A stretch of 64,000 bases of DNA from Patescibacteria group bacterium. Its GTDB lineage: Bacteria > Patescibacteriota > WWE3 > 2-01-FULL-39-13. Where the stretch lies: positions 2,452 to 66,451 of the forward strand of contig JASNYX010000001.1 of NCBI GenBank assembly GCA_048499955.1, in the 5' to 3' direction. The number at the start of each line of letters is the position of its first letter. Within the stretch, counting starts at the first letter, position 1. Below the pieces are notes generated by a model. It saw only the letters and a program-made list of their open reading frames with translations, searched no databases and was not told where the DNA came from. Positions 40,729-57,989 of the stretch are shown piece by piece. The position numbers and the translations under genes are program-made.

Positions 40729-40801
40729 GGGTCTCCCCTTTTTAATGAACTCTTATTAACAAATTCATACCTCTTTCATATTGTTATGGTAGGTTTTTTC
40801 C

Positions 40802-41344: not shown

Positions 41345-43153
41345 CGCACTTTTTAGTTGAAGTGCTCCCGGGGCTCGAAGATTAAAGATTGCTCTGAAAT
41401 CTTCTCCTGAAAATTTCAGCTCGCCTTTATTTGTTGTGATTCTAACTTCAGATGTGAATCCGCTGCTGGAGTAGCTGACTTTTACATCGCTGACTTCTTT
41501 GATGCCGCTTTCTTCGCGAACTTTATCCATGCTCCAGGTTCCGTCGATGTTTTTGCCCCAACAGCTCTTGGCGTCTAGTTGTGAAAGATGTGTCTGGTTA
41601 TTACTACTTTCTTTGTAAAGAACTACCGCCCCAACAATATCTGCAAATTCTTTTTCGCTTAACCAAGGATGGCTTCTTGAGCACGATTGGCCGCTTCTGG
41701 TTTTATACCAACCTTTATAGAACCATGGCGAAGAAGCTTTGCTCTCGTATGCTTTGCTTGTCCAGCATTCCCGTGATCCGCATTCTGTATCCCAACCGCC
41801 TCCTGTGTTGTGCCCGTTACTTGAGTATCCATAGTTGTAGCCACCTGAAGTAGCGGCGTAATAAGTCGAAAAGATTTGTCCGGTTTTCTTGCTGACAAGC
41901 ACCTGTTTCTTAGTTTTTGAAACAGCATCGTGCCATCTGGCGGCACTCGAACTTGTGGCTTTACTTTCCGACCATACTTGGCAGTTTTCTGTTGTGCATA
42001 TTGTTCCCGGAATACTTGAGCTACCCATAGCCCATCCTTGTCGTGCCAATGCATAGGTTCGGGCTGCAACTGCTTGTGCTTTTAAGGCTTCAATCGGCCA
42101 ACTTGAGGGCATCTCTGCCATGCCTTTTAGGTATTTGCCTTCAAAACTCATAGTGCCTTTGTCGGTTTTGATATTATCGGGAACTTCAACTTCCTTGATT
42201 TCTACGTCGCCGTAGTATGCTCTGAGTATTTGTTTATAGTCTTGCCCGGCATCGGCTCGGCCCTTGGCTCCATACTGGCTCATACCTTTTCTATGAGGTG
42301 CTCCGAAAGAAAACCCTGCAAAGGCTTTTTTAAAGCCGGGGTTAAATCCGGCACCGGAACTTGCGTCTCCTGTTGAGGGCACATCTCCAACGCTAGTCGA
42401 GAAGGTTTCTGTTTTCTCATCAAGCAGACCTTTTTGTGCTGCAGACAGCTCACTTAATTTTCTTTGAATTTGTTGTTTCTCTTGCTGTAGTGCTAATTGC
42501 TTTTGTGATACCGAAGAAAGGTCATTTTGTGTCGCTGCAACTTGAGCAGCAAGTCTGGCGGAAAGAGCTTGAAGACTTTTTTTCTGTCCTTCTGCCTGAG
42601 TTTTAAGACCTTCTATTTCGGTTTTAGCATCTTCGTACCCTTTAATTTCTTTTCCTACCAGTTCGATTAGGTTATTGGAGGTATCTATAAAAGCAAAATA
42701 ATAGTTTGCGATCTGTGATCCTTCCGATAGACTTCCCCCTGTAAAAAAAAGATCCATAAAGTTTCTTTGAGTTGCAATGTACATGTCTCGAAGGACAATA
42801 TCTTTCACTTTACTTTTCTCATCAAGTTCATCTTTTTTGATCTCAAGCTTTCGGGATAGATTGGAAATATCAGCAGATAGCTCGTTTATTTGAGATTCAA
42901 CGGAGTTTATCTGGGATTGTGTGACAGTAAGGTTCTTTGAAAAGTTGTTCAAATTTGCGGTGATTTCATTCGCTTTTGCTTTTACTTTTTCTAATTCTGT
43001 CTCTTTTGTTACTAATTCTTTTGTCTTTTTTTGAATCTCTTTATCTAGATCATCTTCAGCACGAGAAAGGCCGACGCCCCAGAGCGATAGCAGCAATATT
43101 GAAAGCGTTATATAGAATATAATCCCTAAAGATCCCTTATATTGATATTTCAT
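41318..43153 (-). CDS. Secreted coiled-coil + SpoIID/LytB-domain protein (peptidoglycan remodelling)
   Basis: Signal/TM then ~250 aa of heptad coiled coil (PcsB-like), then the SpoIID/LytB signature WPIEALKAQAVAARTYAL and a Cys/Trp-rich C-terminus. Confidence 0.7.
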   Translation of the reverse strand: MKYQYKGSLGIIFYITLSILLLSLWGVGLSRAEDDLDKEIQKKTKELVTKETELEKVKAKANEITANLNNFSKNLTVTQSQINSVESQINELSADISNLSRKLEIKKDELDEKSKVKDIVLRDMYIATQRNFMDLFFTGGSLSEGSQIANYYFAFIDTSNNLIELVGKEIKGYEDAKTEIEGLKTQAEGQKKSLQALSARLAAQVAATQNDLSSVSQKQLALQQEKQQIQRKLSELSAAQKGLLDEKTETFSTSVGDVPSTGDASSGAGFNPGFKKAFAGFSFGAPHRKGMSQYGAKGRADAGQDYKQILRAYYGDVEIKEVEVPDNIKTDKGTMSFEGKYLKGMAEMPSSWPIEALKAQAVAARTYALARQGWAMGSSSIPGTICTTENCQVWSESKATSSSAARWHDAVSKTKKQVLVSKKTGQIFSTYYAATSGGYNYGYSSNGHNTGGGWDTECGSRECWTSKAYESKASSPWFYKGWYKTRSGQSCSRSHPWLSEKEFADIVGAVVLYKESSNNQTHLSQLDAKSCWGKNIDGTWSMDKVREESGIKEVSDVKVSYSSSGFTSEVRITTNKGELKFSGEDFRAIFNLRAPGALQLKSALFNIEVRK

Positions 43154-43380: not shown

Positions 43381-43815
43381 ATGACAAAATTAACAAGAAT
43401 TAATACTTCTTTATTCACTAAAGCTGGTTATGTTGTGGTAGCGGCTCTGGCCTTTGTGACTAAAGCGTATGCCCAAGCTGTTCCTTCTGGATCAATAGTT
43501 GTTCCATCTAACAGATTTGGAAGCATCACTAATTTGCAGACACTGTTTCAATGGATCTTTAATTTCCTTCGATGGATAGGATGGGTTGGGGTAGTACTCG
43601 GTATTTTATGGATTATCGTTGTTTTGATATACAAGATATTCTTCGCCCCAGATAGCGAAGAAGCCATGAAGAATGTTCAAAGCCAGCTTACAAAAGCTGT
43701 CTTGGTTGTTATCGCCGGACTATTACTAGTGAGTATGGGATATATCGTCACGACAGTGTTCACACTGTTTGGTGCTGGAACCGTGCCTCCGTTAAATTTA
43801 GATCCGACTATTTAA
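43381..43815 (+). CDS. VirB2/TrbC-like T4SS pilin candidate (signal peptide + two TM helices)
   Basis: Leader ...AALAFVTKAYAQA; FNFLRWIGWVGVVLGILWIIVVLIY - loop - AVLVVIAGLLLVSMGYIVTTVF; SD-like aaggagg 6 nt upstream of the ATG. Confidence 0.6.
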   Translation: MTKLTRINTSLFTKAGYVVVAALAFVTKAYAQAVPSGSIVVPSNRFGSITNLQTLFQWIFNFLRWIGWVGVVLGILWIIVVLIYKIFFAPDSEEAMKNVQSQLTKAVLVVIAGLLLVSMGYIVTTVFTLFGAGTVPPLNLDPTI

Positions 43816-43842
43816 GGTTTTGTAACCGAATTTCAAGAGGGG

Positions 43843-44229
43843 GTGATTATTTACCCCCTCTTGACTCAATGTATGTTCATAACAAAGGCACTTGCGCAAA
43901 TAACTGTAGAAAGCGTGGGAGTTGATCCAACAGGATTAGGCAATATTAGTAGTATTGCCGGGTTTTTTTTCTGGGGGTTAAATTTCCTTAGGTGGATAGG
44001 ATGGGCGGGTGTCGTCTTGGGCACTTTATACACGATTGTCACGATAATATATAATCTTTGGACCGCAGAAGATGCGAGTTCCTCATATGAAATTGTAGTC
44101 AAAAGCATTAGGAAGACAATTGTTATCTCAGTTCTCGGTTTAGTTTTGGTCTCTATCGCTGGAGTGATTTCGATTATTGCAGGTCTATTCGGTGCGAGCG
44201 TGCCATTCAAACTCCCTTTTACTCCTTGA
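43843..44229 (+). CDS. VirB2/TrbC-like pilin paralog
   Basis: LNFLRWIGWAGVVLGTLYTIVTIIY - loop - TIVISVLGLVLVSIAGVISIIAGLF; tandem with the 43381 paralog (shared FLRWIGW.GVVLG motif). Confidence 0.6.
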   Translation: MIIYPLLTQCMFITKALAQITVESVGVDPTGLGNISSIAGFFFWGLNFLRWIGWAGVVLGTLYTIVTIIYNLWTAEDASSSYEIVVKSIRKTIVISVLGLVLVSIAGVISIIAGLFGASVPFKLPFTP

Positions 44230-44417
44230 TAGTCTTTCTCTTTCCGATTAACTTGTAAAATTTCCCTCAAAGTAATAAATTAGGCAGTTTTGGTTCAAAT
44301 AGTAGAAATATCCGGCGAATAGTAGATATATTAATGTGATCGCTAGTCCGGCTTGAGAAAATCTTGTCTTACCGAAGTTGAGGTGAAATTTCATATCAGC
44401 TAGAATGATATTATCTT

Positions 44418-45497
44418 ATGAATAAAATTGCTTCACTTTTTATTATCAGTTTTATTTTCTTTGTAGCAATTGGGTTTCTCTTCAGAAATACTTGGAAAAA
44501 CAGCTTCCTTACAACTAACAATCAACCTCAGGCAATCTATTTTATACGAGATGGCGATCTGTGGTATTTGAATAAAGATACCTCTAATATTAATCAGATT
44601 ACTGATTTGGGTGGCATAGAAGAGTATTGGGTCTTTGAATCCGGAGCCGTCGTAATAAAACGTATTAACTATGAGTCTCATCGCCTAGTAGCGGAGCTTC
44701 TTTATTCTCAAGACAGTTTAAAAACATTTGAAGTAGTTGTTAATAAAACCTTTGAATTCAGTAATCGACCTGATGACATTTACCCCCATTTTGAATTTAA
44801 AGTTTCTGTTGCACCGGATGGGAATAGTTTAGTATATGGTGGTGATTTCTCAGATAGCCTTCAACTTTATGATTTACAAAAAAAATCCACGATTGATTTA
44901 CAACACAAATCGATCTTCGAGTTTGCCTTATCTCGCGATGGAAAGCGTTTAGCTTTTATCAAAGATGCAAACATTGAAGTCCTCGATTTGCCTACGGGTG
45001 ATCAACTTGCGAAAACCGAATTCATTCGCGGGAATGTTTCATACGAAAGTTTTATGAATCCTCAAAAATTAGTCGGATGGACAGCAGATGGGTTATCAGT
45101 CATTTACTTGCATGGTAATTATGGCCAAGGTATGCCTGTAAGTAAGTCAGTTCAGCATTTATATGCGTTTGATATTCCAAACAACCTAGTGCATAAGTTA
45201 AGTAAATCGGAAGAGGGACTGATCGATAACCCCACAAGTGATCTATCTATGGGCGGTTATCTCTACTATGTAACTAGTAAGGCTAATTTTCAGAAAAGTG
45301 CTTGGAGATTGAACTTGGATAATTACGAAATCGTAGAGGTTCCGGACCTAATTAATATGCAAGTTGTATTGAACTCGGGGCAAGGTCTAATTTTTTCGAA
45401 GAGAGGATTTGAAAATAATAGCCATGAAATTTGGAAGTCTGATCTGTTAGGTAAGAATGCCCAGATATTGATTGAGAACGGTACAATTTCGAAGTGA
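44418..45497 (+). CDS. Membrane-anchored beta-propeller-like (TolB/PD40-like) hypothetical protein
   Basis: N-terminal TM (ASLFIISFIFFVAIGFLF) then WD-like repeats; same architecture as the 2007-3326 protein; its 3' end is duplicated (degenerately) 5 kb downstream. Confidence 0.65.
   Translation: MNKIASLFIISFIFFVAIGFLFRNTWKNSFLTTNNQPQAIYFIRDGDLWYLNKDTSNINQITDLGGIEEYWVFESGAVVIKRINYESHRLVAELLYSQDSLKTFEVVVNKTFEFSNRPDDIYPHFEFKVSVAPDGNSLVYGGDFSDSLQLYDLQKKSTIDLQHKSIFEFALSRDGKRLAFIKDANIEVLDLPTGDQLAKTEFIRGNVSYESFMNPQKLVGWTADGLSVIYLHGNYGQGMPVSKSVQHLYAFDIPNNLVHKLSKSEEGLIDNPTSDLSMGGYLYYVTSKANFQKSAWRLNLDNYEIVEVPDLINMQVVLNSGQGLIFSKRGFENNSHEIWKSDLLGKNAQILIENGTISK
45385..45460. repeat. Left copy of an imperfect direct repeat (att-like) inside the 3' end of the 44418-45497 gene
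   Basis: gtctaattttttcgaa ... tggaagtctgatctgttaggtaagaatgc matches 50415-50490 (16/16 and 28/29 nt, same 47-nt spacing); weaker colinear similarity extends about 60 nt upstream. Confidence 0.55.
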
Positions 45498-45507
45498 AAA
45501 CAAGGTA

Positions 45508-46764
45508 TTATCGTCTTTGTAATAAGCTTTTTATTGAAGATAAGTCAAAACCTTTTTTCCCGGATTCGAGTTTCTGAATTTTTTGTAGTAACGTTCTTGC
45601 ATTAGGACTCCCATGCTCGCTATTTGCCCATGCTGTCGAAACTTCCTTTAGTCGCCCCTGTATCGCTTCCATTAGGTCTTCTTCTTTGAAAGATCTGCTA
45701 AAAGCGAATTTTTGAGCTTCTTCTGCTAAATATTGTCTTCTGACTTCAGGATCATCGCTATATAGATTCCGAAGGTAGTTTCCTATCGTGTAATCTTGGT
45801 CGCCATCTTGCTGTGTTCCATCCCCCATTTCGCTTATACCTTCAGATAATAAATGTAAAACCATTAAATTTACCCTGAATGGTTTGCCGTCTTTTCCGAT
45901 TACCGTAAAATCGGGGTTTTTAAAGATTCTGCCGAAATGAAACCCGCTGTTCAGAAATGGAGAGGGAATCCCATTTAGTTTTGTTACTCTTGAGTCTACA
46001 TGTCTAGCTTGACAACCTCTAGCGCTGAGTCTGTACCAATTGCTGGGATCGCTTTCAGTCCAGTTCATAATATCTGCAAGATGGTTTGCAATGAACTCCT
46101 GCTCATCGCCATATATGTTTACCGGATTTGTAAAGTTGATTTTTTTGTATTCTGCCCATAGTTGTTTATAAACAGCATTTATTTGAACTAATCGTGGATT
46201 CTTTTCCCGACTACTTGATCCATAGAGATTCTCGAGGGGATAGTCAAGGTTAGCCGCACACGCTCTAAGAAAATTAACCTTATGTTCGATATGCATAGGA
46301 AGAGCATAGTTGGAAGAAATGAGCATGCTTAATACGTCTTTCCTAAACTCGTCTGATTCTATTCTTTCATCTCCATACATTTCGGGATTCGCTCGCTGGA
46401 ATTCTTTAATCATATCGAGTTCCTCCTGTGTTAGGAATTTTCTTTGTCCATAATTTACGCCGTTAATGGTTACATTTAAGAGTGGTTTTTCAACACTAGG
46501 AAACGGGTAGTTGTTAAATACAAACCCGGCATTAAGTAGTTGCTCTCTTGTCAAATTGCCTATAGAAATGTCTTCTGCTGAAACTCCGGTTTCCAGTAAT
46601 GTAACGAATTCAGGATCATCTTTGGTGATTTTTCCTGAAGGTATTACTTCTAGAGGGTCGTGAGGTGGTTGGCTTTCTTGTATGACAAGCATTTCATAAA
46701 TACTATCTAGTGGGTTTTCGTTTAAATCCTCTTCTTCTAAGGTTTGGGGCAGATGGGTTGCCAT
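45508..46764 (-). CDS. Hypothetical protein (418 aa), first gene inside the putative inserted segment
   Basis: Long intact ORF, no recognisable catalytic motif (no tyrosine or serine recombinase signatures). Confidence 0.6.
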   Translation of the reverse strand: MATHLPQTLEEEDLNENPLDSIYEMLVIQESQPPHDPLEVIPSGKITKDDPEFVTLLETGVSAEDISIGNLTREQLLNAGFVFNNYPFPSVEKPLLNVTINGVNYGQRKFLTQEELDMIKEFQRANPEMYGDERIESDEFRKDVLSMLISSNYALPMHIEHKVNFLRACAANLDYPLENLYGSSSREKNPRLVQINAVYKQLWAEYKKINFTNPVNIYGDEQEFIANHLADIMNWTESDPSNWYRLSARGCQARHVDSRVTKLNGIPSPFLNSGFHFGRIFKNPDFTVIGKDGKPFRVNLMVLHLLSEGISEMGDGTQQDGDQDYTIGNYLRNLYSDDPEVRRQYLAEEAQKFAFSRSFKEEDLMEAIQGRLKEVSTAWANSEHGSPNARTLLQKIQKLESGKKGFDLSSIKSLLQRR

Positions 46765-47019
46765 AATGTTTTGCTGCTAATTTAGCTGAGATTTAAAACA
46801 ATCAGCTTAATATAAGCATTTAAATTATAACTCAAGTTTGATCTAATTAATTGAATTTCGCCACAAGTAGCTGTACAGCAAATTTATTATGGAATATAAT
46901 AATTGCCTGTATAAATTCCTTCCCTTAGAACGGAAATACTCGTAATATAGAGGATTCGACCCACAGTTATGGCTCAAGAATAACGACCTTAGACCTAGTG
47001 GACGTAATTAATAAATTAT

Positions 47020-48393
47020 ATGACAAGCAACGAAATTAAACAGAGACTCAAAGAATATTTTTCCTCATGCTCTGATATGAATTTAGTGAGCGTTTGTTTG
47101 ACAGGCTCGTCTTTAACTAAGCCCCTCTCTGAAGTGGGTGATATAGACTTGGCGTTTATCCTAAAAATAATAGACCATGAAAGTTTGGTACAACTTAGTG
47201 AATACATTTCAGATTTAGAAAAGATTTTTAACAAAAAAATTGGATTTAGTGTACTTTCTGAGGATGAAATTACAAGGGCTAGAGATACCGGCTACTTCCT
47301 TATTGAGGGAAGAAGTGCGAACTATGCAGACGATTTTAAGAATTGTGAAAGCGTTTATGGAGCTTCACTAGGCATAGAAAATATTGAGTTCAATAGTGAC
47401 CCAATAAGTTCCTACTCGAGTTTGAATCGGGTTTTTCATAATCTTGTAAAAGCCATTGTTGTAAAGAATCATGATATAAAAACAATCGAGAAACTAATAA
47501 CAAAGGCTATAAAAATAGTAAATTATAAAACTTTTCAAGATGAGTCAGATTTAAAAAAGCATAGGATAACTAATCAGGATTTTACCAGTGTGAAAGATAT
47601 TTTTTCTAATAAGAAGCAAGGGCAACAATTAGATTCAAAGGAAATTTCCTCTATTTTAAATTTCGTGAACAACCTGAGGACCTATTTGGCAGAAGATATT
47701 ACTAAGCAAAGCATATTTTCCTATGGTATACGTCCTAATAACCTGCCTCCTGAAACAAAATTTATTTTTATTTCGGGTGTAAATCTTTCGGGAAAGTCGA
47801 CTGTTTCACGCAAACTTGCCGGAATCTTAAATTACAATCTTATTCACCTTGACAGCATAAAAGATTCATACAAATCCGTGTACGATTTCCTTGAAATGAA
47901 CACCGTTGATGCTCATCAGGTTATGCCGCACCTTGAGGATTTGAACTTATCCCATGACCGGAAATTGATTCTTAGCTACCAACAAATCAGCAATATTCTT
48001 ATGTACCACCTGAGGTTAATGCTTAAGCCTCTGGCTGTTAAAGGGAAAAGTTGCATTATCGAAGGTTTACATCTTGATCCAGTCGGGCTTAAGTATTTTA
48101 CTGATTATTTCGAAAGCCAAGGAGTGGAAGTTCAAAAATATTATTTATCTACGGATATTCATGATGCATATCAAAATCTTGAACAACTGAAAAAAGAAAA
48201 TGCACCACATAGAGATTTTAAGAAATTCGAATATAAAATTTCCAAGGACAATCCTAATAATGTTTGGCTCATCGATAAACATTTTAAGGAAAGTGCCGAT
48301 AAATATGGCTGGCAGATAATTAAAAACCCACACGGATATTTAGATCAAACTATTTTCGACATTTATTCAAAGATAATATCTTTCCCCCGATGA
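47020..48393 (+). CDS. Fusion protein: N-terminal Pol-beta-superfamily nucleotidyltransferase (NTase) plus C-terminal P-loop (CoaE/PNK-like) kinase domain
   Basis: NTase motif GSSLTKPLSEVGDIDL (GS-x10-DhD); Walker A FISGVNLSGKSTVSRKLA, then IIEGLHLD. Confidence 0.7.
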   Translation: MTSNEIKQRLKEYFSSCSDMNLVSVCLTGSSLTKPLSEVGDIDLAFILKIIDHESLVQLSEYISDLEKIFNKKIGFSVLSEDEITRARDTGYFLIEGRSANYADDFKNCESVYGASLGIENIEFNSDPISSYSSLNRVFHNLVKAIVVKNHDIKTIEKLITKAIKIVNYKTFQDESDLKKHRITNQDFTSVKDIFSNKKQGQQLDSKEISSILNFVNNLRTYLAEDITKQSIFSYGIRPNNLPPETKFIFISGVNLSGKSTVSRKLAGILNYNLIHLDSIKDSYKSVYDFLEMNTVDAHQVMPHLEDLNLSHDRKLILSYQQISNILMYHLRLMLKPLAVKGKSCIIEGLHLDPVGLKYFTDYFESQGVEVQKYYLSTDIHDAYQNLEQLKKENAPHRDFKKFEYKISKDNPNNVWLIDKHFKESADKYGWQIIKNPHGYLDQTIFDIYSKIISFPR

Positions 48394-49433
48394 TGAAATT
48401 AGAATCAATAGATCTGGGCAACTACAACTCTGAATTAATAGAACCACCGATTCCTATTAATCCCCTTAATCGCCATGAAACATATGTTTATAAATTAATT
48501 ACCACGAACGGTGTCTTTGCGTTATATGTTTCAAATCGATTACCAAAATTTCCCCATACTCAGGAGTATTTATCAGAAATAATAGAATCCAATTTCCCGA
48601 AAATAAAAACACCAACTTATATAAAGTCATTTAATGGAGATTTTTATATAGAAAAGATAGTGGATCAACAAACATATTATTTAAGTGTCAAAAAGTGGAT
48701 CGATGGAAATCCCTACACAAATAAGCTCAGCGAGTTGAAAAATTCGGCACAAGCTCTTGCTTCCATACATGGTGTCTCTGCAGATTATAGAATCGACAAA
48801 GATCTTTCATTAAAAAATAAAAGCGGATTAAATAAATCATTTTCACTTGGATCTGATATGCTCTTTATCGAGTATCTGGACCTTTTTTTATCAAAACATC
48901 GTAAATCTAATCGTGTATGTAGCTGGATAGAAAAAAATAAGAAAACTTTAATAAAAGAGTGGCAAGAGTGCATAAGTTTTTACAACGCAGACATATATTC
49001 GAAGCTCCCACGAGGTATACTTCATGGCGATTTTACTCCGCAAAATATTTTATTTGAAAATGATTTTGTTGTAGGAGTTCTTGATTTCAACTCCATCAAA
49101 TACGATGCGTACTTACGGGAAATCGTTTGGTCTGCTTTGACATTCTCGCAAAGTAAAAGTTCCTCGAGCACGTTGAGTTTTGAGAGATTCGCAACCTTTA
49201 TTAAGGAGTATGTTCGTATGGCAGAGAATTCGGATTCTTACTCCGATGATTATCTTGATTATTGTTATGAGGTTTCTATTTCCAGATGTTTGAAAGTTTT
49301 TAAGAATTTGATAAAGAAGGACGTAACCGACTCATGGTACTTGTCGGAATATCTTGAAGGAAATATGAGAAATATTGATTTTCTACTTACAGAACGAAGC
49401 CGGATTTCCTGTCGGAAGAATTATTCCAGATAA
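48390..49433 (+). CDS. Aminoglycoside phosphotransferase (APH)/choline-kinase-fold phosphotransferase
   Basis: Brenner motif ILHGDFTPQNILF and VVGVLDFNS (DxD metal-binding); 4-nt overlap with the upstream fusion gene (operon). Confidence 0.7.
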   Translation: MMKLESIDLGNYNSELIEPPIPINPLNRHETYVYKLITTNGVFALYVSNRLPKFPHTQEYLSEIIESNFPKIKTPTYIKSFNGDFYIEKIVDQQTYYLSVKKWIDGNPYTNKLSELKNSAQALASIHGVSADYRIDKDLSLKNKSGLNKSFSLGSDMLFIEYLDLFLSKHRKSNRVCSWIEKNKKTLIKEWQECISFYNADIYSKLPRGILHGDFTPQNILFENDFVVGVLDFNSIKYDAYLREIVWSALTFSQSKSSSSTLSFERFATFIKEYVRMAENSDSYSDDYLDYCYEVSISRCLKVFKNLIKKDVTDSWYLSEYLEGNMRNIDFLLTERSRISCRKNYSR

Positions 49434-49447
49434 GTAATATTGGTAAA

Positions 49448-49699
49448 GTGAAAATTATTGAAGTGGGGGATGACTCTTTAACAATAGATGTTATTGAGGA
49501 TCAGAGCTTTGATGGGGAATTTTATCCGAGAATCCCTGTCGATAGATTATTAATTAAAGATGAAATTTGCACTTCAGGGTTCCCGCTTGCAATGGATGTT
49601 GAGTATGATTATTGTTTTAACATTGAGAATCAGGGTGATATTATCGCTTTAAAATATATAATCCAAGGAAGAAGTACTTTTCCTAACCCTAATCGGTAA
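49448..49699 (+). CDS. Small hypothetical protein (83 aa), third gene of the NTase-kinase operon
   Basis: Starts 14 nt after the upstream stop; acidic; no motif. Confidence 0.4.
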   Translation: MKIIEVGDDSLTIDVIEDQSFDGEFYPRIPVDRLLIKDEICTSGFPLAMDVEYDYCFNIENQGDIIALKYIIQGRSTFPNPNR

Positions 49700-49959
49700 C
49701 TTTTTATTGAAGAAGATTATGATTTTAACAAAAAAAGACCTGTGAAGGGCTTTTATGGTGGGGAGTCTAGACGACCATTGGAATCAAATAGCTGAGTTCA
49801 GTTATGGGCCAGAGGATGTTTGTGAAATAGAAAAAATGTCCAATAGTGATCTGCTTTGTATATGAAGAGTCGATTTGACTCTAATACTTAGCTTTTCACT
49901 AGCAAGGACTTGGTTTTACCCAAGTGTTGGACAGACGTCCTTGCCTTTGTCGATACTAA

Positions 49960-50170
49960 CTACAGATCTTCGATCCAGGTGAAGTCGAATGAATAGCCCT
50001 CTGGGGGTGAGCCCGCAGCTTTCTTCAGCGGCTTTTCTGGGTCATTGACCCAGAAGGGAACCTGGTAGGTTCCTTTGTCAATTTCATGAACGATGGGGTA
50101 TTGCCCATCACTTTCTCGAGGCCCGTACTTCCGAAAGAAGACCTTGTAGGTACTATTTTTATTAGCCATG
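49960..50170 (-). CDS. Small hypothetical protein (70 aa) with a strong Shine-Dalgarno sequence
   Basis: aaggag 6 nt upstream of the ATG at 50170 (MANKNSTYKVFF...). The track ORF extends to 50217, but the SD supports the internal start. Confidence 0.5.
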
Positions 50171-50350
50171 TTTTCTCCTTTTTGGCTAATTACAGCATGA
50201 AAAATCGACCCGCTCATTTTATCCTATAGTAGTTAGTTTTTCAATTGGGAAATAGGTTCAATGTTTTAGAGTGTTTAGCGGTAATGCCTGAACTGATACC
50301 ACATACGTAGGTCAAATTTACAGAAAAGTACTTGGAAACTAAGTTAAGAA

Positions 50351-50503
50351 AATTTCGAAATGGAAGAAGTATCAGGATTGGCTAATGTTAAGTATGTTTC
50401 TAGTGACGATAATAGTCTAATTTTTTCGAAAACCGATGCTTTAAACCAACCCACTTAGATATGGAAGTCTGATCTGTTAGGTAGAAATGCTGAAATTGTT
50501 TAG
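50351..50503 (+). pseudogene. Decayed duplicate of the 3' end of the TolB-like gene (right att-like repeat); no intact reading frame
   Basis: Colinear similarity to 45321-45460 with two near-identical blocks (50415-50430, 50462-50490); lies in a 525-nt gene-free stretch. Confidence 0.5.
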
Positions 50504-50742
50504 ATAATGTCGAATGCTATCAATGGAGATGAACGATACTTGAATTTTGTATGAACTCGATTATTTTTGAGTATTGAAGCCTAAATGTGTGTTAGATATA
50601 CTGTTGCTTGTCAAACTTGCAAAGGTAGATAGGTATTACCACCTAAATTTTTCTTGTTTAATGAATATTTAGTTCCCTCCCAAAGCTCTAAATCCTCTCC
50701 TTAATTATATTTGAGTGAAGAAGATTATTCGCTTAACCGCTA

Positions 50743-51810
50743 ATGGATAGACAGACTCCGCTTGTGCAATTGTTAAAGTCAACCAGCACTATAATTCCCT
50801 CATCAAATAACGCTAATCTTGATACTTTTATGTTCGAAACCCCTCTATTGGCAGAGCTGACTAAAAAGATAACAGAACTATATAAAGATGATCTTGTTTT
50901 CGCATTATTATTTGGGTCTAGAGTAGATGGTGAGTTTAAACAAAACAGTGATTACGATATTTTGATTGTTGAGAAGTCTCCCTATAAAGATCAATCTAGA
51001 CACGAACAAATAAAGAGGATTTTTATAGAGTTACAGGAAAAGGAAGAGTTGAAGGTTGATTATGATTATCCCGGGGAATACATAGATATTTTTACATTGA
51101 ATAAAGCTATTTTAGGTTACGGTTTTGTTTATGACGATAAAGAAGTCATCATTGAGAAAGTCGGAGCAAAAGACTGGAATAGATTTAATGAATATAGGCA
51201 ATGGTTATCTGCAATGTCAGGCCCCAACATATTATTGGCCGGAAATATAAAAGATTTTGTTGAATATAAAGAGCGGGCAATTAAAACTTTAATCAAACTA
51301 GTGATTTGTAAAAGGGACTTTACTTTTAAAGACTCGAGTGAATTAGTAGATCTGCTTGTTTTGGGTGGGAAAGAGTACTTGGGTATGAAAAATATACCGA
51401 GTGTCAGAAAATACCTCGAGGATCTTATTGAATTAGTTCTCCATGAATTAATTCAAGAAAACATAATAATAAAAGGGGATAACAAATTCCATGTTAATTT
51501 TGAAATATGTGTAAAATCTATTGAGCTATTAATATCTACAGATGAAAACGAATTTCGTAAAAGTTTTTTTGGGGGTATTACGGATTTTGATAAACAAGTA
51601 ATCACTGATGTGGTATCAGATAATCTGAGTTATGTTAGTAGTTTGAATAAGACTATCGACTACAGGTCAGATAAAGATTTACAAGAAGATATTTCTGAAG
51701 ATTTGCCAATGGACGCAACTGGACATTATAATGTTCAGAAACAATACGCTTCAATTCGGTTAGAAATACAAAATATAAATCAAACCGTCCGGGATATTGC
51801 TTTTTCCTGA
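50743..51810 (+). CDS. Nucleotidyltransferase-domain protein (MNT/KNTase-like NTase with ~200-aa C-terminal extension)
   Basis: LLFGSRVDGEFKQNSDYDILIV (GS-x9-DhD). Confidence 0.7.
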   Translation: MDRQTPLVQLLKSTSTIIPSSNNANLDTFMFETPLLAELTKKITELYKDDLVFALLFGSRVDGEFKQNSDYDILIVEKSPYKDQSRHEQIKRIFIELQEKEELKVDYDYPGEYIDIFTLNKAILGYGFVYDDKEVIIEKVGAKDWNRFNEYRQWLSAMSGPNILLAGNIKDFVEYKERAIKTLIKLVICKRDFTFKDSSELVDLLVLGGKEYLGMKNIPSVRKYLEDLIELVLHELIQENIIIKGDNKFHVNFEICVKSIELLISTDENEFRKSFFGGITDFDKQVITDVVSDNLSYVSSLNKTIDYRSDKDLQEDISEDLPMDATGHYNVQKQYASIRLEIQNINQTVRDIAFS

Positions 51811-53056
51811 TGGAAATTCTATCTCAGGATTAGTCGGAAACATCAATGAAATCTTTGCGAATCAGAATCTTATTGCTACAACAAAGAGCGCTCCAAGTGG
51901 TACTTTTGTTGAAATACAAACTATTGAATGGTTCAGGAAACTAGTTGGGTATCCTGTTATTGGGAGACCTGAGGATGCATTAGGTGCCGGCGGAGCATTT
52001 GTATTTGGAGGTACTATGGCAAACACTATCAGCTTAATGGCTGCTAGAGAAAAAGCCTTTCCCGGATGCAAGAAAAAAGGGCTAACTTCATTTAATGAAA
52101 AGCCTGTTCTATTAGTCGCTGAAAATACAATTAATCATTATTCACATGCAGGCGCTTTTGGTTGGCTAGGATTAGGTGAGGACAATATTGTTGAAGTATC
52201 GATTACAGAAGACTTTAGGCTTGATCAAAACGATCTTAAAAAGAAACTGAAAAAATATAAAAATGACTCAGGTTATAAAATAATTGCATTAGTAGCTCAA
52301 GCGGGAGATTCCAGAACAACAACTATTGAAGACTTCGACGCAATTTCAAAGATAACCAAACAATTTGGTGTATGGTTACATGTTGATGCTTGTCATGGAG
52401 GAGTTTTGATCTTTTCGAATAAACATAAACACAAATTAAAGGGAATGGAATTGGCCGATTCCATTAGTATGGATCCTCATAAAGGTTTGGCAGTTACGTA
52501 TCCCGCAAGTCTTGTACTGGTTAAAGATAGAGAAAGTTTGGGTCTTATTGCAAAACATACTGATATTACAATTAATAAAGGGAGCTTTGATCTTGGTCAA
52601 ATGACGCCAATGATTGGAAGTAAGCCATTTATTGCTTTGAAATTATGGTTTTTGATTAAATCGTTGGGAATCAAAAATATCGGTAAAATAATTGATTCAA
52701 GAATGGATCTAGCTCAGAGTTGGAAAAGGAAAATAGATGACTCGAAATATTTCAGATCGCTAAATGACATTGAATTAAATAGTGTCGTTTTTAGTTTATG
52801 CCCGAAAAAGATTAAGACTATTGATGATTCGAAAAAACTTAGTGAGTTAAATAAAGCACTTCATGACGCTGTCTATAAAGATGGTTATATGTGTATACAC
52901 AATTTTGATATTGTTGATTACAAAAATGTTTTGAAGTTTGGAAAAGTTAAAATCAGAACGTTAGGTGCAATTTTTGGGAATCCGTTAACGGATGAATATG
53001 ATTTCAATGCATATATTAATTATTTAGAATCTGTAGCAGAGAGATATATAAGATGA
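51797..53056 (+). CDS. Pyridoxal-phosphate-dependent group II amino-acid decarboxylase
   Basis: FGGTMANTISL, HVDACHGG, and the PLP-lysine motif SISMDPHKGL. Confidence 0.8.
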   Translation: MLFPDGNSISGLVGNINEIFANQNLIATTKSAPSGTFVEIQTIEWFRKLVGYPVIGRPEDALGAGGAFVFGGTMANTISLMAAREKAFPGCKKKGLTSFNEKPVLLVAENTINHYSHAGAFGWLGLGEDNIVEVSITEDFRLDQNDLKKKLKKYKNDSGYKIIALVAQAGDSRTTTIEDFDAISKITKQFGVWLHVDACHGGVLIFSNKHKHKLKGMELADSISMDPHKGLAVTYPASLVLVKDRESLGLIAKHTDITINKGSFDLGQMTPMIGSKPFIALKLWFLIKSLGIKNIGKIIDSRMDLAQSWKRKIDDSKYFRSLNDIELNSVVFSLCPKKIKTIDDSKKLSELNKALHDAVYKDGYMCIHNFDIVDYKNVLKFGKVKIRTLGAIFGNPLTDEYDFNAYINYLESVAERYIR

Positions 53057-53967
53057 TTATTATCACCCCATATCATGCCAAAAAAAATCATCATGACTTT
53101 GGTAAAAGACAAAAATATTTAACAGAAACAATTAGCTCAATTGACAAACAAAATCTTCACAGCTTAACTCATATCATTGTTGATGACGGTAGTACTGATA
53201 ACTTTTGCGACACAATTAAAACTGTTTATACCACCACAGAGAGAATTTGGCTTAGGCGTGAAAAACTAGCGGGTGAAATTCTAACTTGCACAAATGCGTT
53301 AAATTTCGGAATCAAATATATCTTAGATAATCCAGACCGATTTAAAGATAGCGAACTCGTAACATTTATTCACTCTGATGATTTAGCCATTAGCCTAGGC
53401 GATCGAGAAGATTTTATGGTTAGGAATAATCTGGATTTTATGTATTCGGATGCATTGATATTCTTTGATGATCGTGAGTATGGCTTTTTATGGGAAGGTT
53501 TACCGATTAATACAAATAACATCGAGAAAAAACTTTGGATTCAAGGGAGAATGCCATATATAACAATGACTTGGAAGCTTTCGCTAGTAAAAGACCTAAT
53601 AAAACAGAATAAGCAAAAATACGCACAGGAAGCTCTTCTTGACCCTTATGTTGGTTGTGGAGAGGATGTCGATCTTGCAATTAATACATTGAAGTTCATA
53701 GAAGATAGTGAATACAAGGGAGGGTATTTGCCTGAAATTACTGCGGCTTACAGAATTCATGGTAAATCATTAGCAGAAATACGTGATCAAAAAATCAGAA
53801 AGAATGAAGAAAATTCTGTTCTTCAAAAACATTTCGGAAGACATAGTATTAAGTTGCTTCATATTCAAAGATTTATAAATAGGCCTTGGTTGTACTTTCC
53901 TCTTTTCAGAAAGTTTAAGAAATCAATTAAATTGAAAGTTAGTGATTATTTACACAAAAATGCATAA
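53053..53967 (+). CDS. Family 2 glycosyltransferase
   Basis: SLTHIIVDDGSTDN (GT2 DDGSTD motif), DxD-like HSDD; 4-nt overlap with the decarboxylase. Confidence 0.8.
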   Translation: MIIITPYHAKKNHHDFGKRQKYLTETISSIDKQNLHSLTHIIVDDGSTDNFCDTIKTVYTTTERIWLRREKLAGEILTCTNALNFGIKYILDNPDRFKDSELVTFIHSDDLAISLGDREDFMVRNNLDFMYSDALIFFDDREYGFLWEGLPINTNNIEKKLWIQGRMPYITMTWKLSLVKDLIKQNKQKYAQEALLDPYVGCGEDVDLAINTLKFIEDSEYKGGYLPEITAAYRIHGKSLAEIRDQKIRKNEENSVLQKHFGRHSIKLLHIQRFINRPWLYFPLFRKFKKSIKLKVSDYLHKNA

Positions 53968-54946
53968 ACAATATTTACTCATAAGTTTCTTTGTTACGAA
54001 TCCCGATGCACTTGCGAAACTTAAAGCTCAGTGGTTGGGTAATGAAGAACAGAAAGACAGAAAATTTCTCGGACGTTCAGAAGAGGAAACTGCTGAAGTT
54101 ACGAACGAGCAGTTAGGTGGAAAAGTGATTTTAGTTGATCCCGAGAATTTTGAGAGAGGCATATTGCACGAAATAGATATTCCGGTTCCTATGGGATTGG
54201 TTTTCGATGAAAGAAGTAATAGTTTATTGGTTACTAGTGACTTTGATGTTTATAGCTTATCGAAAGGAAATTATAAGACGCATATATCCAATGGGTTGTT
54301 TAATAATTTGCACAGTATTTCAGTAAATAATCATGGAGATTTATTAGTTACATCTACCGGCCTTGATTCCATCTTGCAATTTGATTCGGAATCAAAAGAC
54401 TTAAAATGGAAATGGTTAGGTACTCATAATGGTTATAATAAGACTCCGGAAGGAGAAGGAGTAATGCCTATCGATGAAACATTCGATTATAGAAATAGAA
54501 CTATCGCAACTTCTGATCAAACCACTCATGTAAATAGCGCAATATTCGAAAATGATTATATTCTTGCAACTTTTTTCCATCAGGGAGAATTGGTCAAAAT
54601 AGATACAAATACCGGTAAAGTGAGCACGATTCTTGGGAACATGAAGTCTCCGCACGCTATAAGAAAAACCGATTTTGGTTATTCAGTTGTTGATACCAGA
54701 AACAACAAAGTAATGCTTTTAGATCATGAGTTCAAAATTATAAAAGAGATTTCAAATGACTATGATTGGGTGCAAGATGCGATTGAAATCGACAATCAGT
54801 TTTACATTGCTGATGCAAATAATGGAAATATCGAGAAAGTTGACTTGGATGGCATCAGTAAAGCAAAGTTCGTGTGGGATCCAAACTCTTGGAAAGTCGG
54901 TGGTTTAGCAACATTAGATGCTGATAAGATTGATTTGGTATTTTAA
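53960..54946 (+). CDS. Beta-propeller (NHL/SMP-30-like) hypothetical protein
   Basis: Repeated blade-like segments (LLVTSTGLDSILQFD; YIADANNGNIEKVD); start taken at MHKQYL (the track starts at 53942). Confidence 0.6.
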   Translation: MHKQYLLISFFVTNPDALAKLKAQWLGNEEQKDRKFLGRSEEETAEVTNEQLGGKVILVDPENFERGILHEIDIPVPMGLVFDERSNSLLVTSDFDVYSLSKGNYKTHISNGLFNNLHSISVNNHGDLLVTSTGLDSILQFDSESKDLKWKWLGTHNGYNKTPEGEGVMPIDETFDYRNRTIATSDQTTHVNSAIFENDYILATFFHQGELVKIDTNTGKVSTILGNMKSPHAIRKTDFGYSVVDTRNNKVMLLDHEFKIIKEISNDYDWVQDAIEIDNQFYIADANNGNIEKVDLDGISKAKFVWDPNSWKVGGLATLDADKIDLVF

Positions 54947-54951
54947 GTAGT

Positions 54952-56031
54952 TCAAAAATAGCTTGTCCATTTTTTGGCGATGATATCCCAACTTTCTTGC
55001 ATTGCACTTTTAATAAATACATTTCGTAATGAGTTTTTATCTTTTTGATTATAAATTTGAGGAAGGTTGTTGTTTTTTATGAAATCAATAATTGTGTATG
55101 CAAGTTTTTGCTGAGTATTTTGATCAAATGGATTTCCATCAACTTTAATACTGTAATCTTTTTCGGATAAAGCCGCCCAATTTGTTGTAAATGGTATACA
55201 CCCTGCCATTGCTGCTTGTCGAACAGTAATGCAGTCTATTTCCAACATTGTACAACCATAATATAAAATATTCGCTTTGTGGTTAGCTTCAATTAGTGTT
55301 TCTATTCCAACGCGACCATATTCAGTAATACCCGGTTGATTCATAAGGTCAATCATTTTTGCTTTCCATTTTTGTTTTTCAATATCATTGCTGTAAACAG
55401 CGTTAAATAAATCCCAACCATAATATATATCCAGCGTGATATCGGGTAGTTCCTTTTTTAAAATCGGCCATCCGTATGTAAGCATATACTCAAGGCCACG
55501 GTAATAGCTTGAAGCATAGATTAATTTTTTTGGGTCACGATTAACGTGATTTGTGCTTGCAAATTTAACATCTGCTCCATTGGGAATTATTACAAACTTT
55601 TCTTCGGGAATTAAAGGTAATAAGTTTCTTTGGAATTCAGATTTAACAAAAATTCTATCAATCTTGTCTAATCTATTTTGTGTATACTCCTCTTGCTGTG
55701 GAGTGTCGTGCAAATCAAGAATAAGTAGGGATGCAGATAAGTTCATATCTACGAAACTGGGTTCTCTCCATAGTATTAGTATGTTGTATTTATCTTGAGG
55801 ATTAAATTTCTTGTAATCATAATATGTAATACCTTCGTATATACCTTCATGTTGTCCAATATTGCTGTATACTGTTACTTCGTACCCGAGAGATTTCCAA
55901 ATTTTTGATAGGTAAATTACCGCAGTTTGAGATCCTCCAAGACCGGTTTTTAACGAATTGGGAGACCAGTATTCTGATGTTTCCCCAGTGTAGTAGACGA
56001 TGGAATTTTTCGGCCAAATTTTTTGAGTCAT
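54952..56031 (-). CDS. GT-B fold (GT4-like) glycosyltransferase
   Basis: C-terminal EYGRVGIETLIEANHKANILYYG...AAMAGCIPFTT nucleotide-sugar-binding pattern; start taken at MTQKIW (the track's 56088 start overlaps the divergent gene). Confidence 0.65.
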   Translation of the reverse strand: MTQKIWPKNSIVYYTGETSEYWSPNSLKTGLGGSQTAVIYLSKIWKSLGYEVTVYSNIGQHEGIYEGITYYDYKKFNPQDKYNILILWREPSFVDMNLSASLLILDLHDTPQQEEYTQNRLDKIDRIFVKSEFQRNLLPLIPEEKFVIIPNGADVKFASTNHVNRDPKKLIYASSYYRGLEYMLTYGWPILKKELPDITLDIYYGWDLFNAVYSNDIEKQKWKAKMIDLMNQPGITEYGRVGIETLIEANHKANILYYGCTMLEIDCITVRQAAMAGCIPFTTNWAALSEKDYSIKVDGNPFDQNTQQKLAYTIIDFIKNNNLPQIYNQKDKNSLRNVFIKSAMQESWDIIAKKWTSYF

Positions 56032-56041
56032 AGATTTTCTA

Positions 56042-56983
56042 TTGAATAAGTATAATACCTCAATGCAAATTAACAATTTAGAAAACAAGATAAAAAATTT
56101 GATATCGAAGACTCACCCCGAACTTTCATTGTCGGAAGTTATCAAAATGTCGTTAGGTATATCTACAAATGTATACAGGCTTAGTACTTCTGATGGAATT
56201 TATTATTTCCGAATTCCGAAAAACATTAATGAAAATATTTCCGGTGAAGTATTAATTTTGCAAAGATTGCAAGAGAAAGGAATGAAAGTTCCAAAAGTAA
56301 TCGGCCATGAAAACTTTTGTCACGAATTAGATGGGTATTCATACTATATAACTTCCGAAATTAAAGGTACTCCAATTGATAACACAAATAGGGATACGGT
56401 TTTACATGATGCAGGTTCTCAGCTTGCATTGTTAAATTCGATTGAATATCCGGGATTTGGTGGTATAACCAGATATCAGGAAAATATTGAATCTGTAAGT
56501 GGACATTTAAATTCATATAGTGATTTCATTCTCTATAAATGGGAAAGTCACTTAAATAAATTGCAAAATAAAGGTATCCTTTCTGACAACAAAATAGTTT
56601 CGATTACAAAATTGCTCCGTGATAATCACGATTTCTTTAATCAATTGCAGGGATACTTAATGCACGGAGATCTTAATGTTAATCACATTTATTCACACAA
56701 GGGAAATTTTTCGGGATTTATTGATTTTAGTGATTGCAGAATTGCAAATAAATTTTTTGATTTAGCCTATTTCAAGATTTGTAACCGGGAAGACTTCGCT
56801 TCATTAGTAAATGGTTATGCAAAAGTTAATCCACAGATATTAAATGAAATTAATGGTCTAGACTTTTTAATTACTACTTTAATTGTTGGTATAAGAATTG
56901 TTTCTTCGCTAATTGATAATGAACAAGATTTGGTGAAAGTTTCTCAGGTTAGAAGTCTGATTTTAGAGCTTGATTCTATATAG
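56042..56983 (+). CDS. APH/choline-kinase-fold phosphotransferase (second copy in region)
   Basis: YLMHGDLNVNHIY and GFIDFSD motifs. Confidence 0.7.
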   Translation: MNKYNTSMQINNLENKIKNLISKTHPELSLSEVIKMSLGISTNVYRLSTSDGIYYFRIPKNINENISGEVLILQRLQEKGMKVPKVIGHENFCHELDGYSYYITSEIKGTPIDNTNRDTVLHDAGSQLALLNSIEYPGFGGITRYQENIESVSGHLNSYSDFILYKWESHLNKLQNKGILSDNKIVSITKLLRDNHDFFNQLQGYLMHGDLNVNHIYSHKGNFSGFIDFSDCRIANKFFDLAYFKICNREDFASLVNGYAKVNPQILNEINGLDFLITTLIVGIRIVSSLIDNEQDLVKVSQVRSLILELDSI

Positions 56984-57025
56984 ATATAGAGATGTCAGAA
57001 TTTAATTTATAAGTTGGGGAATATA

Positions 57026-57430
57026 TGGTGGAGATGGGGGGAATCGAACCCCCATGCTAAAAGCTTAATCAAATAAAAGTTACATGCTTAACGGTTTTAA
57101 TAATTTGTATATTCTGGAAAACCGTAAAATTAATATACAAATTTGATAATTTTTCTCTGATTTGGTTGGCCTGACAAGTGATTGATCAGAGGAACTTCCT
57201 TTAAAATGCCCGAGGGCAAAAAAAAGGGAAACGCGAGGTTTCTCTTGTCAAACTGCTGAATAAGGATAAATCCGTTTGTAGTGGCTAACTTATGCTATCG
57301 CGTAAGCGGGCACCATTACATCAGCATATTCATCTGCATTGTTTGCATTTATATTTTTGACAGTTTTAAGACTTAACGGTCTGCATGTTCTATTTGAAAT
57401 GTACTTCTAGGCGATGCCTGAAACATCCCC
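57026..57430 (-). ncRNA. ssrA: tmRNA (SsrA), about 405 nt
   Basis: Minus-strand 5' GGGGAUGUUUCAGG... and 3' ...GGGGGUUCGAUUCCCCCCAUCUCCACCA (T-arm plus encoded CCA). The 7-bp acceptor stem includes the G3-U pair. Putative tag ORF GCA AAC AAU GCA GAU GAA UAU GCU... resembles E. coli ANDENYA. smpB lies immediately upstream. Confidence 0.8.
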
Positions 57431-57536
57431 AAGCGAAAAGAATTATATCAAGAATATGCCTGATTTGTCAAAGATTCGTGAGGATTGCTAATGACCTGCG
57501 TAATAAATCAGATGGGGATTAAACAACATAAAATGC

Positions 57537-57989
57537 CTAGTTATAGCGGTTTTTTACAGTTTTGCGGATTTCTTTTTCTTGTTGCTTTTTGATCAGATCT
57601 TGTTTCTTCTGGTGCTTTTGTTTGCCTCTTGCTAGCCCTGCAAGGAGTTTTAGAAGTCTTCCCTGGGTGTATATTTTTAAAGGTACTAAGGTGAATCCTT
57701 TTTGCTCGATTTTTCCTGAAAGGCTTTTTATTTCCTCTTTGTTTAATAGTAGCTGCCTGGATCTTACCGGATCATAGTGGAATAATGCTGCCGCTTTAGA
57801 ATATTTAGGTAAATTGAAATTCACCAAATACGGCTTGCCTTTGGTGATTCTAATATAGGCACCTCTTAGCGATCCTCGGCCTTCTTTTATAGATTTAACC
57901 TCATGACCCTGGAGTTTCATTCCGGCTTCGATCTTCTCCACGACTTCATAGTCCCTATAAGCTTTTCGGTTTACTATATATACTGGCAT
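57537..57989 (-). CDS. smpB: SsrA-binding protein SmpB
   Basis: MPVYIVNRKAYRDYEVVEKIEAGMKLQGHEVKSIKEGRGSL is the SmpB N-terminal signature; the track ORF begins 5 codons upstream at a TTG (58004). Confidence 0.85.
   Translation of the reverse strand: MPVYIVNRKAYRDYEVVEKIEAGMKLQGHEVKSIKEGRGSLRGAYIRITKGKPYLVNFNLPKYSKAAALFHYDPVRSRQLLLNKEEIKSLSGKIEQKGFTLVPLKIYTQGRLLKLLAGLARGKQKHQKKQDLIKKQQEKEIRKTVKNRYN

Follow-up and report, generated by a model that had tools for sequence, protein, structure and literature searches.

An accessory gene block in a variable slot next to the tmRNA gene of a Patescibacteria group bacterium

How did a block of 12.8 kb (44230..57025) come to lie directly against the 3' end of the transfer-messenger RNA (tmRNA) gene, ssrA, of a Patescibacteria group bacterium? 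The block forms part of a 64,000-nucleotide stretch of contig JASNYX010000001.1 (the window, whose numbering is used throughout unless the locus of a relative is named), where it fills the interval between the tmRNA 3' end and the last of the conserved small pilin-like genes. An initial annotation, made from the letters of the window, had taken it for an old, degraded island at a classical integration site. Comparison with related bacteria indicates that the block is very probably an accessory insertion in an ssrA-adjacent hot spot, and the sections below consider by which route it may have arrived.

The ssrA-adjacent slot in the window and in relatives

ARAGORN and Rfam (RF00023, 116.3 bits, full length) agree in placing the tmRNA gene, with the tag ANNADEYADVMVPAYAIA, on the minus strand (57026..57430). 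Its 3' CCA end, at 57026, faces lower coordinates and constitutes the block's right-hand junction. Beyond ssrA lies smpB (57537..57989, minus strand; Pfam SmpB 2.5e-44), the nearest of the conserved core genes on that side, followed by genes for a lineage-specific protein of ~603 aa, a DUF5657 protein, a ComF-like phosphoribosyltransferase, and FtsH. The initial annotation had described both the orientation of ssrA toward the block and the core genes behind it in these terms, and the analysis bears that description out.

Relatives were reached through homologues of SmpB, of its ~606-aa neighbour, and of the SpoIID-domain protein that lies left of the block; their loci are given here by L numbers. 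A search for SmpB among genome contigs returned distant taxa only, the best being a Patescibacteria single-amplified genome at 43%, and was of no use for synteny. The window SmpB is 100% identical to P0001 and 77-52% identical to the proteins of relatives that share the upstream synteny. The upstream order FtsH-ComF-186 aa-DUF5657-~606 aa-SmpB-tmRNA is kept in L071, L072, L073, L074, L077-L080, L086, and L090-L092. This side of the tmRNA gene is thus conserved in seven groups of relatives, and the content that follows the gene differs each time.

The left side of the slot is also conserved. It consists of two small pilin-like membrane protein genes, each with two transmembrane segments (43381-43815 and 43843-44229, together 43381..44229, plus strand), and of the core gene for the SpoIID-domain protein (41318..43153, minus strand; Pfam SpoIID 3e-19). 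A 139-aa protein of L086 matches both small genes, at 43432-43806 (42%, 7e-24) and at 43936-44190 (28%, 1e-6), and equivalent small genes precede SpoIID in L073, L086, and L087. SpoIID orthologues with 57-64% identity are found in many relatives, and in L073 and L086 they lie next to the tmRNA region.

Between these flanks, the relatives carry different DNA. In L073 (SmpB 61%), the tmRNA gene is followed by a terminator hairpin, three small genes with two transmembrane segments each, and SpoIID, with nothing extra; in the tblastx comparison, the window and L073 are collinear over 64000-57540 and 42970-36555 and the DNA between has no counterpart. In L086, a 945-kb genome, the terminator is followed by 4.1 kb of unrelated mannosyltransferase-like, YggT-like, and PMT_2 genes, and then by two small genes and SpoIID. 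Mobile-element or defence genes occupy the slot in four further loci: homologous elements that start with a 511-512-aa serine recombinase in L071 and L072 (SmpB 77% and 66%), and PIN and AbiEi/AbiEii toxin-antitoxin or abortive-infection genes in L078 and L079 (SmpB ~52%; L078:12782-16763, L079:12983-14435). In L078, a pair of genes for proteins of 449 aa and 184 aa is duplicated (13532-15422 and 16859-18746).

Five different contents of the slot were therefore seen (the window, L073, L086, L071/L072, and L078/L079), with the upstream flank kept in all of them and the downstream flank in L073 and L086. No homologue of a block protein was found in any of the loci reached through SmpB or SpoIID, and at every site that could be read in a relative (SmpB distances of 52-61%), the block is missing. 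Because the flanks are conserved, the contents differ, and homologues are lacking from these loci, the block at 44230-57025 is lineage-specific and lies in a slot whose content is subject to turnover across the family. The claim that an accessory block begins exactly at the ssrA 3' end is upheld in this respect, since the site in L073 and L086 is without it. Judged by gene order, the slot is hypervariable and is bounded by the ssrA 3' end on one side and by a conserved cell-envelope cluster (the small pilin-like genes, SpoIID, and an M23 peptidase) on the other.

Contig ends point to the same place. Of five independent metagenome contigs of one relative, L090-L092 and L093 end 84-178 nt after the tmRNA gene, and L094 ends at the end of smpB, before the tmRNA gene; in another, the small pilin-like genes form the start of the contigs L087 and L088. 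Metagenome assemblies systematically break at this slot, which is to be expected of strain-variable DNA.

The composition of the block was compared with that of the remaining window. The block has a GC content of 0.344, compared with 0.379 and 0.411 for its flanks. The mean GC of nine to eleven block genes is 0.334-0.342, compared with 0.388 for the other 42 open reading frames (ORFs) of the window (Mann-Whitney p = 2e-5 to 5e-5); GC at third codon positions (GC3) is 0.29-0.30 in block genes and 0.345 elsewhere (p = 5e-5 to 1e-4), and GC is lower at all three codon positions. The 10-kb stretch with the lowest GC in the window is 47-57 kb (0.338, compared with 0.380 overall). The slot cargo of L086, L078, and L079 is likewise AT-richer than its own flanks, for example 0.299 compared with 0.36-0.39 in L086. 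The compositional deviation of the block is real but modest. The initial annotation had called the region AT-richer, which the quantitative comparison confirms, and motif-rich, for which no support was obtained: the block holds trivial tandem repeats and dispersed repeats at chance level only. It had also named a gene order conserved across the lineage, without a compositional shift, as grounds for abandoning the island; the order was found to vary among the relatives, and GC to differ.

The junction with ssrA, recombinase elements in relatives, and the interior of the block

The right-hand junction is tight. The last gene of the block, encoding an APH-family kinase, stops at 56983, convergent with the tmRNA gene and 42 nt from its 3' end. 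When the tmRNA ends and their downstream flanks were aligned, similarity among the relatives ended at the CCA. A terminator hairpin with a GC-rich stem and a run of T directly follows the tmRNA gene in L073, L080, L086, and L091; no terminator-like site was found after the window tmRNA gene (56984-57025), and L071 and L072, which bear elements, likewise have none. The native ssrA terminator is thus gone from the window, so that no more than a few nucleotides separate the tmRNA end from the foreign DNA. Without a recognisable intrinsic terminator, transcripts of ssrA would continue antisense into the convergent APH gene, unless processing at the 3' end is sufficient. At the other end of ssrA, a putative promoter of the consensus sigma-70 type (TTGACA-18-TATAAT with extended TG; 57442..57471, minus strand) matches at 12/12 positions and is the top match in 43-58 kb.

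The spacer that separates the APH gene from the tmRNA end shows, over 56988..57023, a weak likeness to the end of the L072 element, where the recombinase C terminus is encoded. The local alignment of the spacer with the L072 flank comprises 36 columns and has a score of 27 (shuffle p = 0.0135, uncorrected for seven comparisons). This piece may be a scar of an integration module, and we treat it as a hint.

In L071 and L072, the DNA next to ssrA has a recognisable mobile character. A gene for a CcrB-like large serine recombinase of ~512 aa adjoins ssrA in both loci (L071:6979-8889, L072:7341-9202) and overlaps it by 35 nt, so that the acceptor and T arm of the tmRNA lie antisense to the codons for the last residues of the recombinases (NMVEMGGIEPPC / NMVEMAGIEPAY). 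CcrB is the best NCBIfam match of these proteins, and the PDB match is the catalytic domain of the TP901-1 integrase. The recombinase gene is followed by genes for an AAA_25 ATPase, a helix-turn-helix (HTH) protein, and a radical SAM protein, and by other element genes. Judging from these CcrB-like elements, ssrA serves as an attachment site in this lineage. The initial proposal that ssrA is an island attachment site therefore holds for the lineage; for the block itself, integration at an attB site within ssrA is no more than plausible.

A comparable system has been described in Dehalococcoides, in which ssrA islands encode DsiB, a CcrB-like serine recombinase with attL embedded in dsiB, leave a 20-bp ssrA repeat, and accrete in tandem downstream of ssrA, some of them without integration modules (PMC3146451). 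The recombinase genes of L071 and L072, with the tmRNA end inside the ORF, have the architecture described for dsiB and attL, and the rest of their modules (AAA_25, HTH, and radical SAM) does not match the DsiA/RecF/ParB/Mom module (PMC3146451). The block in the window shares with the Dehalococcoides islands the target gene, the side of that gene, and the setting of a variable region with tandem or decayed islands. Unlike them, it has no recombinase and no 20-bp ssrA repeat, and it belongs to another phylum and carries other cargo.

Islands of the Islander type (general concept in PMC4383910) carry a tyrosine integrase, and their insertion splits a tRNA or tmRNA gene and regenerates it. Like these, the block adjoins the 3' end of a single-copy ssrA, corresponds to an empty site in relatives, is AT-richer, and carries niche- or surface-type cargo. 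Unlike these, it contains neither a tyrosine integrase nor any other, and no displaced tmRNA fragment lies at its far end; an Islander-type algorithm would not call it. In its behaviour the locus resembles a tmRNA-associated genomic island. It lacks two defining features of both the Islander and the Dehalococcoides type, the integrase and the displaced ssrA fragment; a better label for it is cargo without an integrase in an ssrA hot spot.

The interior of the block is not uniform. Its two leftmost genes are close to the core in GC (0.364 and 0.391), and the remaining ones have 0.305-0.350. Two modules are separated by a gene-poor junction or scar segment of 1 kb (49700..50742), near whose ends a 13-nt direct repeat, TGAAGAAGATTAT, occurs at 49707 and 50715; by our own estimate, such a repeat is about what chance would yield in 15 kb. 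GC rises to 0.43-0.53 at 49900-50200, and an Rfam scan of the segment gave nothing credible. Within it lies a 69-aa orphan gene (49960..50169, minus strand; the product begins MANKN, and the ORF is open to 50217) with a good ribosome-binding site, a GC of 0.47, and a GC3 of 0.535 in a neighbourhood of 0.33, which makes it the most compositionally foreign piece of the block. Only three homologues of the orphan protein were found among 1.84 billion representatives: two are proteins of 70-71 aa, and one is a 765-aa Big_9/cadherin-repeat protein for which seven matched stretches were reported. Phage and plasmid collections contained no homologue.

The same segment holds a pseudogene fragment of 204 nt with two in-frame stops (50297..50500, plus strand), the leftover 3' portion of a gene paralogous to that of the 359-aa propeller protein, corresponding to residues 284-351. 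It shows 46% identity over 68 aa to the propeller gene 5 kb upstream (tblastn E = 1e-12 to 1e-14), and the two also share a 32-nt repeat with 91% identity. The fragment marks an old rearrangement junction within the block. A comparison of the block proteins with one another for duplicated modules found no paralogy beyond this fragment, and apart from it all block genes are intact and densely packed. The steps in GC, the pseudogene fragment, and the GC-rich orphan gene imply that the block was built or remodelled in more than one step; judged from these traces, it is probably not the product of a single integration event.

Possible histories of the block

Taken as a whole, the account that we favour, and consider somewhat more probable than its opposite, is that the block is a horizontally acquired and now immobile piece of DNA that entered at ssrA, lost its integration module, and was remodelled later. 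The DNA would have entered by site-specific recombination at ssrA, by means of an element like those that are intact in L071 and L072, and the recombinase of that element would have been of the large serine type (CcrB/DsiB-like), with an ORF that extends into the 3' end of the tmRNA gene. Loss of the integration module and of any att repeat would have followed, as would a reshaping of the cargo by further recombination, in which two GC-distinct modules were joined through the 1-kb scar. Arrival by ssrA-specific integration, considered on its own, is plausible at a little less than an even chance; in its favour are the junction at the CCA, the missing terminator, the elements that remain intact in relatives, and the weak scar.

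Several results weigh against this account. Searches of Pfam, NCBIfam, PHROGs, and PADLOC found no gene for an integrase, an excisionase, replication, or transfer in the block, and tblastn with the recombinases of the relatives found no remnant beyond 11 residues that any tmRNA 3' end encodes. The terminal 28-mer of ssrA, searched with up to 3 mismatches across the whole window, matches only itself. The alignment test that linked the spacer to L072 gave no significant alignment with the L071 flank. The tetranucleotide profile of the block correlates with that of the rest of the window at 0.968, and the corresponding distance (0.0154) does not exceed that of 22-42 kb, a higher-GC region (0.015-0.0165). 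As the block signature is close to that of the host, either the donor was similar or residence has been long. The slot cargo of L086 lies beyond a retained ssrA terminator. The distal sides of the L071 and L072 elements extend beyond the visible loci, so the absence of the block from the closest relative is a result of the protein search alone. The reading of the cargo given below draws on weak, domain-level matches.

Other searches gave similar outcomes. No transposase, phage, or defence family match was obtained for the block ORFs. The direct repeat of ssrA's 3' end that the initial annotation had suggested looking for was found neither with the 28-mer nor by BLAST with the last 100 nt of ssrA (best non-self match 12 nt, E = 0.28) nor by a gap-tolerant scan, in which the block maximum of 22 is at chance level (shuffle mean 22.9). 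The tmRNA-3'-like string at 49756-49789, which that annotation had itself distrusted, was rejected: its gapped local score of 17.5 is below many chance matches. ssrA repeats were likewise not found within the visible cargo of L071, L072, L078, L079, and L086, the L071 and L072 elements extending past their loci. An IMG/VR search for CcrB-like ssrA elements gave no match with a single protein and one irrelevant 24% match with an alignment query, and none of the proteins encoded by the 19 viral contigs with the exact tmRNA 3' 28-mer is related to the recombinase or to a protein of the window. The lack of an integrase noted initially is thus corroborated. The step from there to an old, degraded island that once had an integrase was not borne out, since neither an att repeat nor a recombinase remnant was detected.

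A different history would dispense with any ssrA-specific step: the block would have been assembled piecemeal, by homologous recombination through the conserved flanks or by illegitimate joins at microhomology, and its proximity to ssrA would be incidental. The slot lies between two convergent 3' ends, those of ssrA and of the small membrane genes, and tolerates insertions; the failure to find an integrase, an att repeat, or a recombinase remnant fits this history, as does L086, which shows that not all slot cargo was joined at the tmRNA end. The mosaic structure, with an internal scar bounded by 13-nt microhomology and a gene fragment inside, and the host-like tetranucleotide signature are in line with it too, and the nucleotidyltransferase (NTase) and decarboxylase genes of the block are a common pair of the candidate phyla radiation (CPR), found next to argS elsewhere, and not typical mobile-element cargo. 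However, foreign DNA within a few nucleotides of the CCA together with a vanished terminator is what integration at the ssrA 3' end is expected to leave, and L071 and L072 are in the same state. Intact ssrA-targeting elements in the two relatives that are closest by SmpB, among those with flanking sequence, and the weak similarity of the spacer to the L072 element end also argue for ssrA-specific entry. We regard assembly without such a step as possible but rather unlikely.

If the block were instead ancestral, L073 and L086 would have lost it by deletion, and in L071 and L072 the elements would have displaced or hidden it. The L071 and L072 loci do end inside their elements, and the block genes are intact and dense apart from the one fragment; on the other hand, the block is absent wherever the site is readable, a database that includes the assemblies of the relatives yields no decarboxylase orthologue with more than 54% identity, GC and GC3 of the block are below those of the core, and the loss of a terminator that four relatives retain points to a derived state in the window. 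An ancestral block is accordingly improbable. An assembly artefact, in which DNA of another organism was joined at a repeat or variable site, is more improbable still. The assemblies of relatives break exactly at the slot and the source is an apparently metagenome-derived contig of 141 kb, but both flanks have the lineage, order, and orientation seen in L073 and L086, so that two independent mis-joins would be needed; moreover, SmpB, the decarboxylase, and SpoIID are all recorded on one contig of 141,221 bp, and the oligonucleotide signature of the block follows that of the rest of the window. An insertion that entered at ssrA, lost its integration module, and was later remodelled remains the history that we prefer.

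Islands next to ssrA are a well-known phenomenon, and the block is expected in kind and represents no new mechanism. What is new here is the lineage of the host, the specific set of cargo genes, and the occurrence of CcrB-like elements at ssrA in CPR relatives; a literature search found no report of tmRNA-linked islands in CPR/Patescibacteria-like bacteria or of CcrB-like ssrA elements there. Little is known about how the reduced genomes of such bacteria gain and lose genes. The locus shows the classical ssrA hot spot operating in a CPR lineage: among the relatives, an empty site occurs alongside intact serine-recombinase elements and cargo blocks that lack an integrase. It provides a well-delimited example and a marker site for strain comparison. 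More tentatively, this CPR lineage may own a family of ssrA-targeting integrative elements with a CcrB/DsiB-like recombinase, of which the block would be an accreted, integrase-less island delivering an undescribed split NTase-decarboxylase/kinase/glycosyltransferase pathway for strain-specific surface decoration. We consider this extended view doubtful; if true, it would be among the first mapped site-specific island systems in Patescibacteria-like bacteria.

Cargo of the block and neighbouring genes

The block ORFs were compared with Pfam, NCBIfam, PHROGs, and PADLOC. The first gene (44418..45497, plus strand; GC 0.364) encodes a 359-aa putative membrane-anchored beta-propeller protein of the DPPIV_N/TolB-like type (Pfam DPPIV_N 1.3e-6) with an N-terminal hydrophobic segment. 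The next (45508..46764, minus strand) encodes a protein of 418 aa and is the only sizeable ORF of the block without a family match in these collections. It was tried as a hidden recombinase and set aside, as its single-sequence AlphaFold model (pLDDT, the predicted local distance difference test score, 33.6) was unusable and too poor for a fold search. Two plus-strand genes follow. One (47020..48393) encodes a 457-aa protein with a weak N-terminal MntA-like NTase domain (NCBIfam MntA 4e-3) and a P-loop, AAA_33-like kinase domain (Pfam AAA_33 3e-4), for which a sequence search of the PDB gave no match; the other (48390..49433) encodes a 347-aa predicted small-molecule kinase of the APH family, similar to homoserine kinase II and CotI (Pfam APH 9.5e-11; NCBIfam homoserine kinase 6e-11, far below the family cut-off). 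An ORF of 83 aa from the ORF list (49448..49699, plus strand), without a match in the family searches, is the last gene of the left module.

The right module begins with genes for a 355-aa NTase of the Pol-beta superfamily (50743..51810, plus strand; Pfam NTP_transf_2 8e-8, Polbeta 1e-7) and a 419-aa group II pyridoxal phosphate (PLP)-dependent decarboxylase (51797..53056, plus strand; Pfam Pyridoxal_deC 2.6e-48). They are followed by genes for a weakly matched family 2 glycosyltransferase of 304 aa (53053..53967, plus strand; Pfam Glycos_transf_2 1.2e-4, NCBIfam TuaG-like 7e-5), a putative beta-propeller-like protein of 334 aa (53942..54946, plus strand; weak ASST and DUF6923 matches, Pfam 2e-4 and 3e-4, below the cut-offs), and a weakly matched GT4-like glycosyltransferase of 378 aa (54952..56088, minus strand; Pfam Glyco_transf_4 1.8e-4, below the cut-off). 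The APH-family kinase next to ssrA has 313 aa (56042..56983, plus strand; Pfam APH 5e-16; NCBIfam APH(3') 4e-10, below the cut-off; PDB APH(3') 2e-3). The decarboxylase and APH domains are clear, and the GT2, GT4, P-loop kinase, and propeller matches lie below curated cut-offs.

The decarboxylase has PDB relatives among the 2,4-diaminobutyrate (DABA), glutamate, and aromatic amino-acid decarboxylases (down to 8e-42). Among 5.8 billion proteins, in a database that includes the assemblies of the relatives, its best non-self homologue is 54% identical; in contrast, core proteins of L071 are 77-81% identical to those of the window. In the window, the NTase (50743) and the decarboxylase are encoded by separate, overlapping genes. 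In Saccharimonadales and other CPR contigs, they form one fusion protein of 716-734 aa (L075:10001-12184, L076:4875-7058), and in L084:6406-8677 the pair is split differently. These arrangements indicate that NTase and decarboxylase act as a unit and are functional partners, and the occurrence of fusions and split pairs in other CPR contigs shows that the gene pair belongs to the CPR gene pool and was relocated here. In four contexts, the NTase-decarboxylase gene lies directly upstream of argS, with TauD or PHP genes upstream of it. The NTase-decarboxylase looks like a conserved CPR enzyme of unknown function.

In total, the predicted enzymes of the block, to which the membrane-anchored propeller protein does not belong, comprise two NTases, three kinases, a PLP decarboxylase, and two glycosyltransferases, none of them with a predicted membrane-spanning segment. 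From this domain content, they would most likely form a pathway that produces an activated amine or sugar or attaches it to a glycoconjugate or small molecule, the amine being activated by a phospho or nucleotidyl group, and the product would vary the cell surface between strains. Cargo for glycosylation and amine chemistry probably affects the cell surface, which is central for episymbiotic bacteria. A reading of the NTases and kinases as a defence island was rejected, as PADLOC gave only domain-level matches to a candidate system.

O-antigen and capsule loci are low-GC, variable loci for surface polysaccharides or glycosylation that are flanked by conserved genes. The block resembles them in its glycosyltransferases and sugar- or amine-activating enzymes, its lower GC, its fixed position, and the gene sets specific to each relative, and the L086 slot cargo is also glycosyltransferase-like. 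Unlike these loci, the block contains no recognised gene for a flippase, a polymerase, a chain-length protein, or a nucleotide-sugar synthase, and its matches are mostly weak.

The conserved envelope cluster to the left of the slot extends over 28582-44229 of the window. It includes a 1345-aa M23 peptidase, the SpoIID protein with a coiled-coil N terminus, the small pilin-like proteins, which resemble pilins of type IV secretion systems (T4SS), and two proteins of 1227 aa and 882 aa without family matches. The part at 36.5-43 kb, with the M23 peptidase and SpoIID, is syntenic in L073 and, by gene calls, also in L086 and L087. Further left, at 3328-7956, the window contains T4SS-like genes for a PrgI-family protein and a TraG/VirB4-like ATPase.

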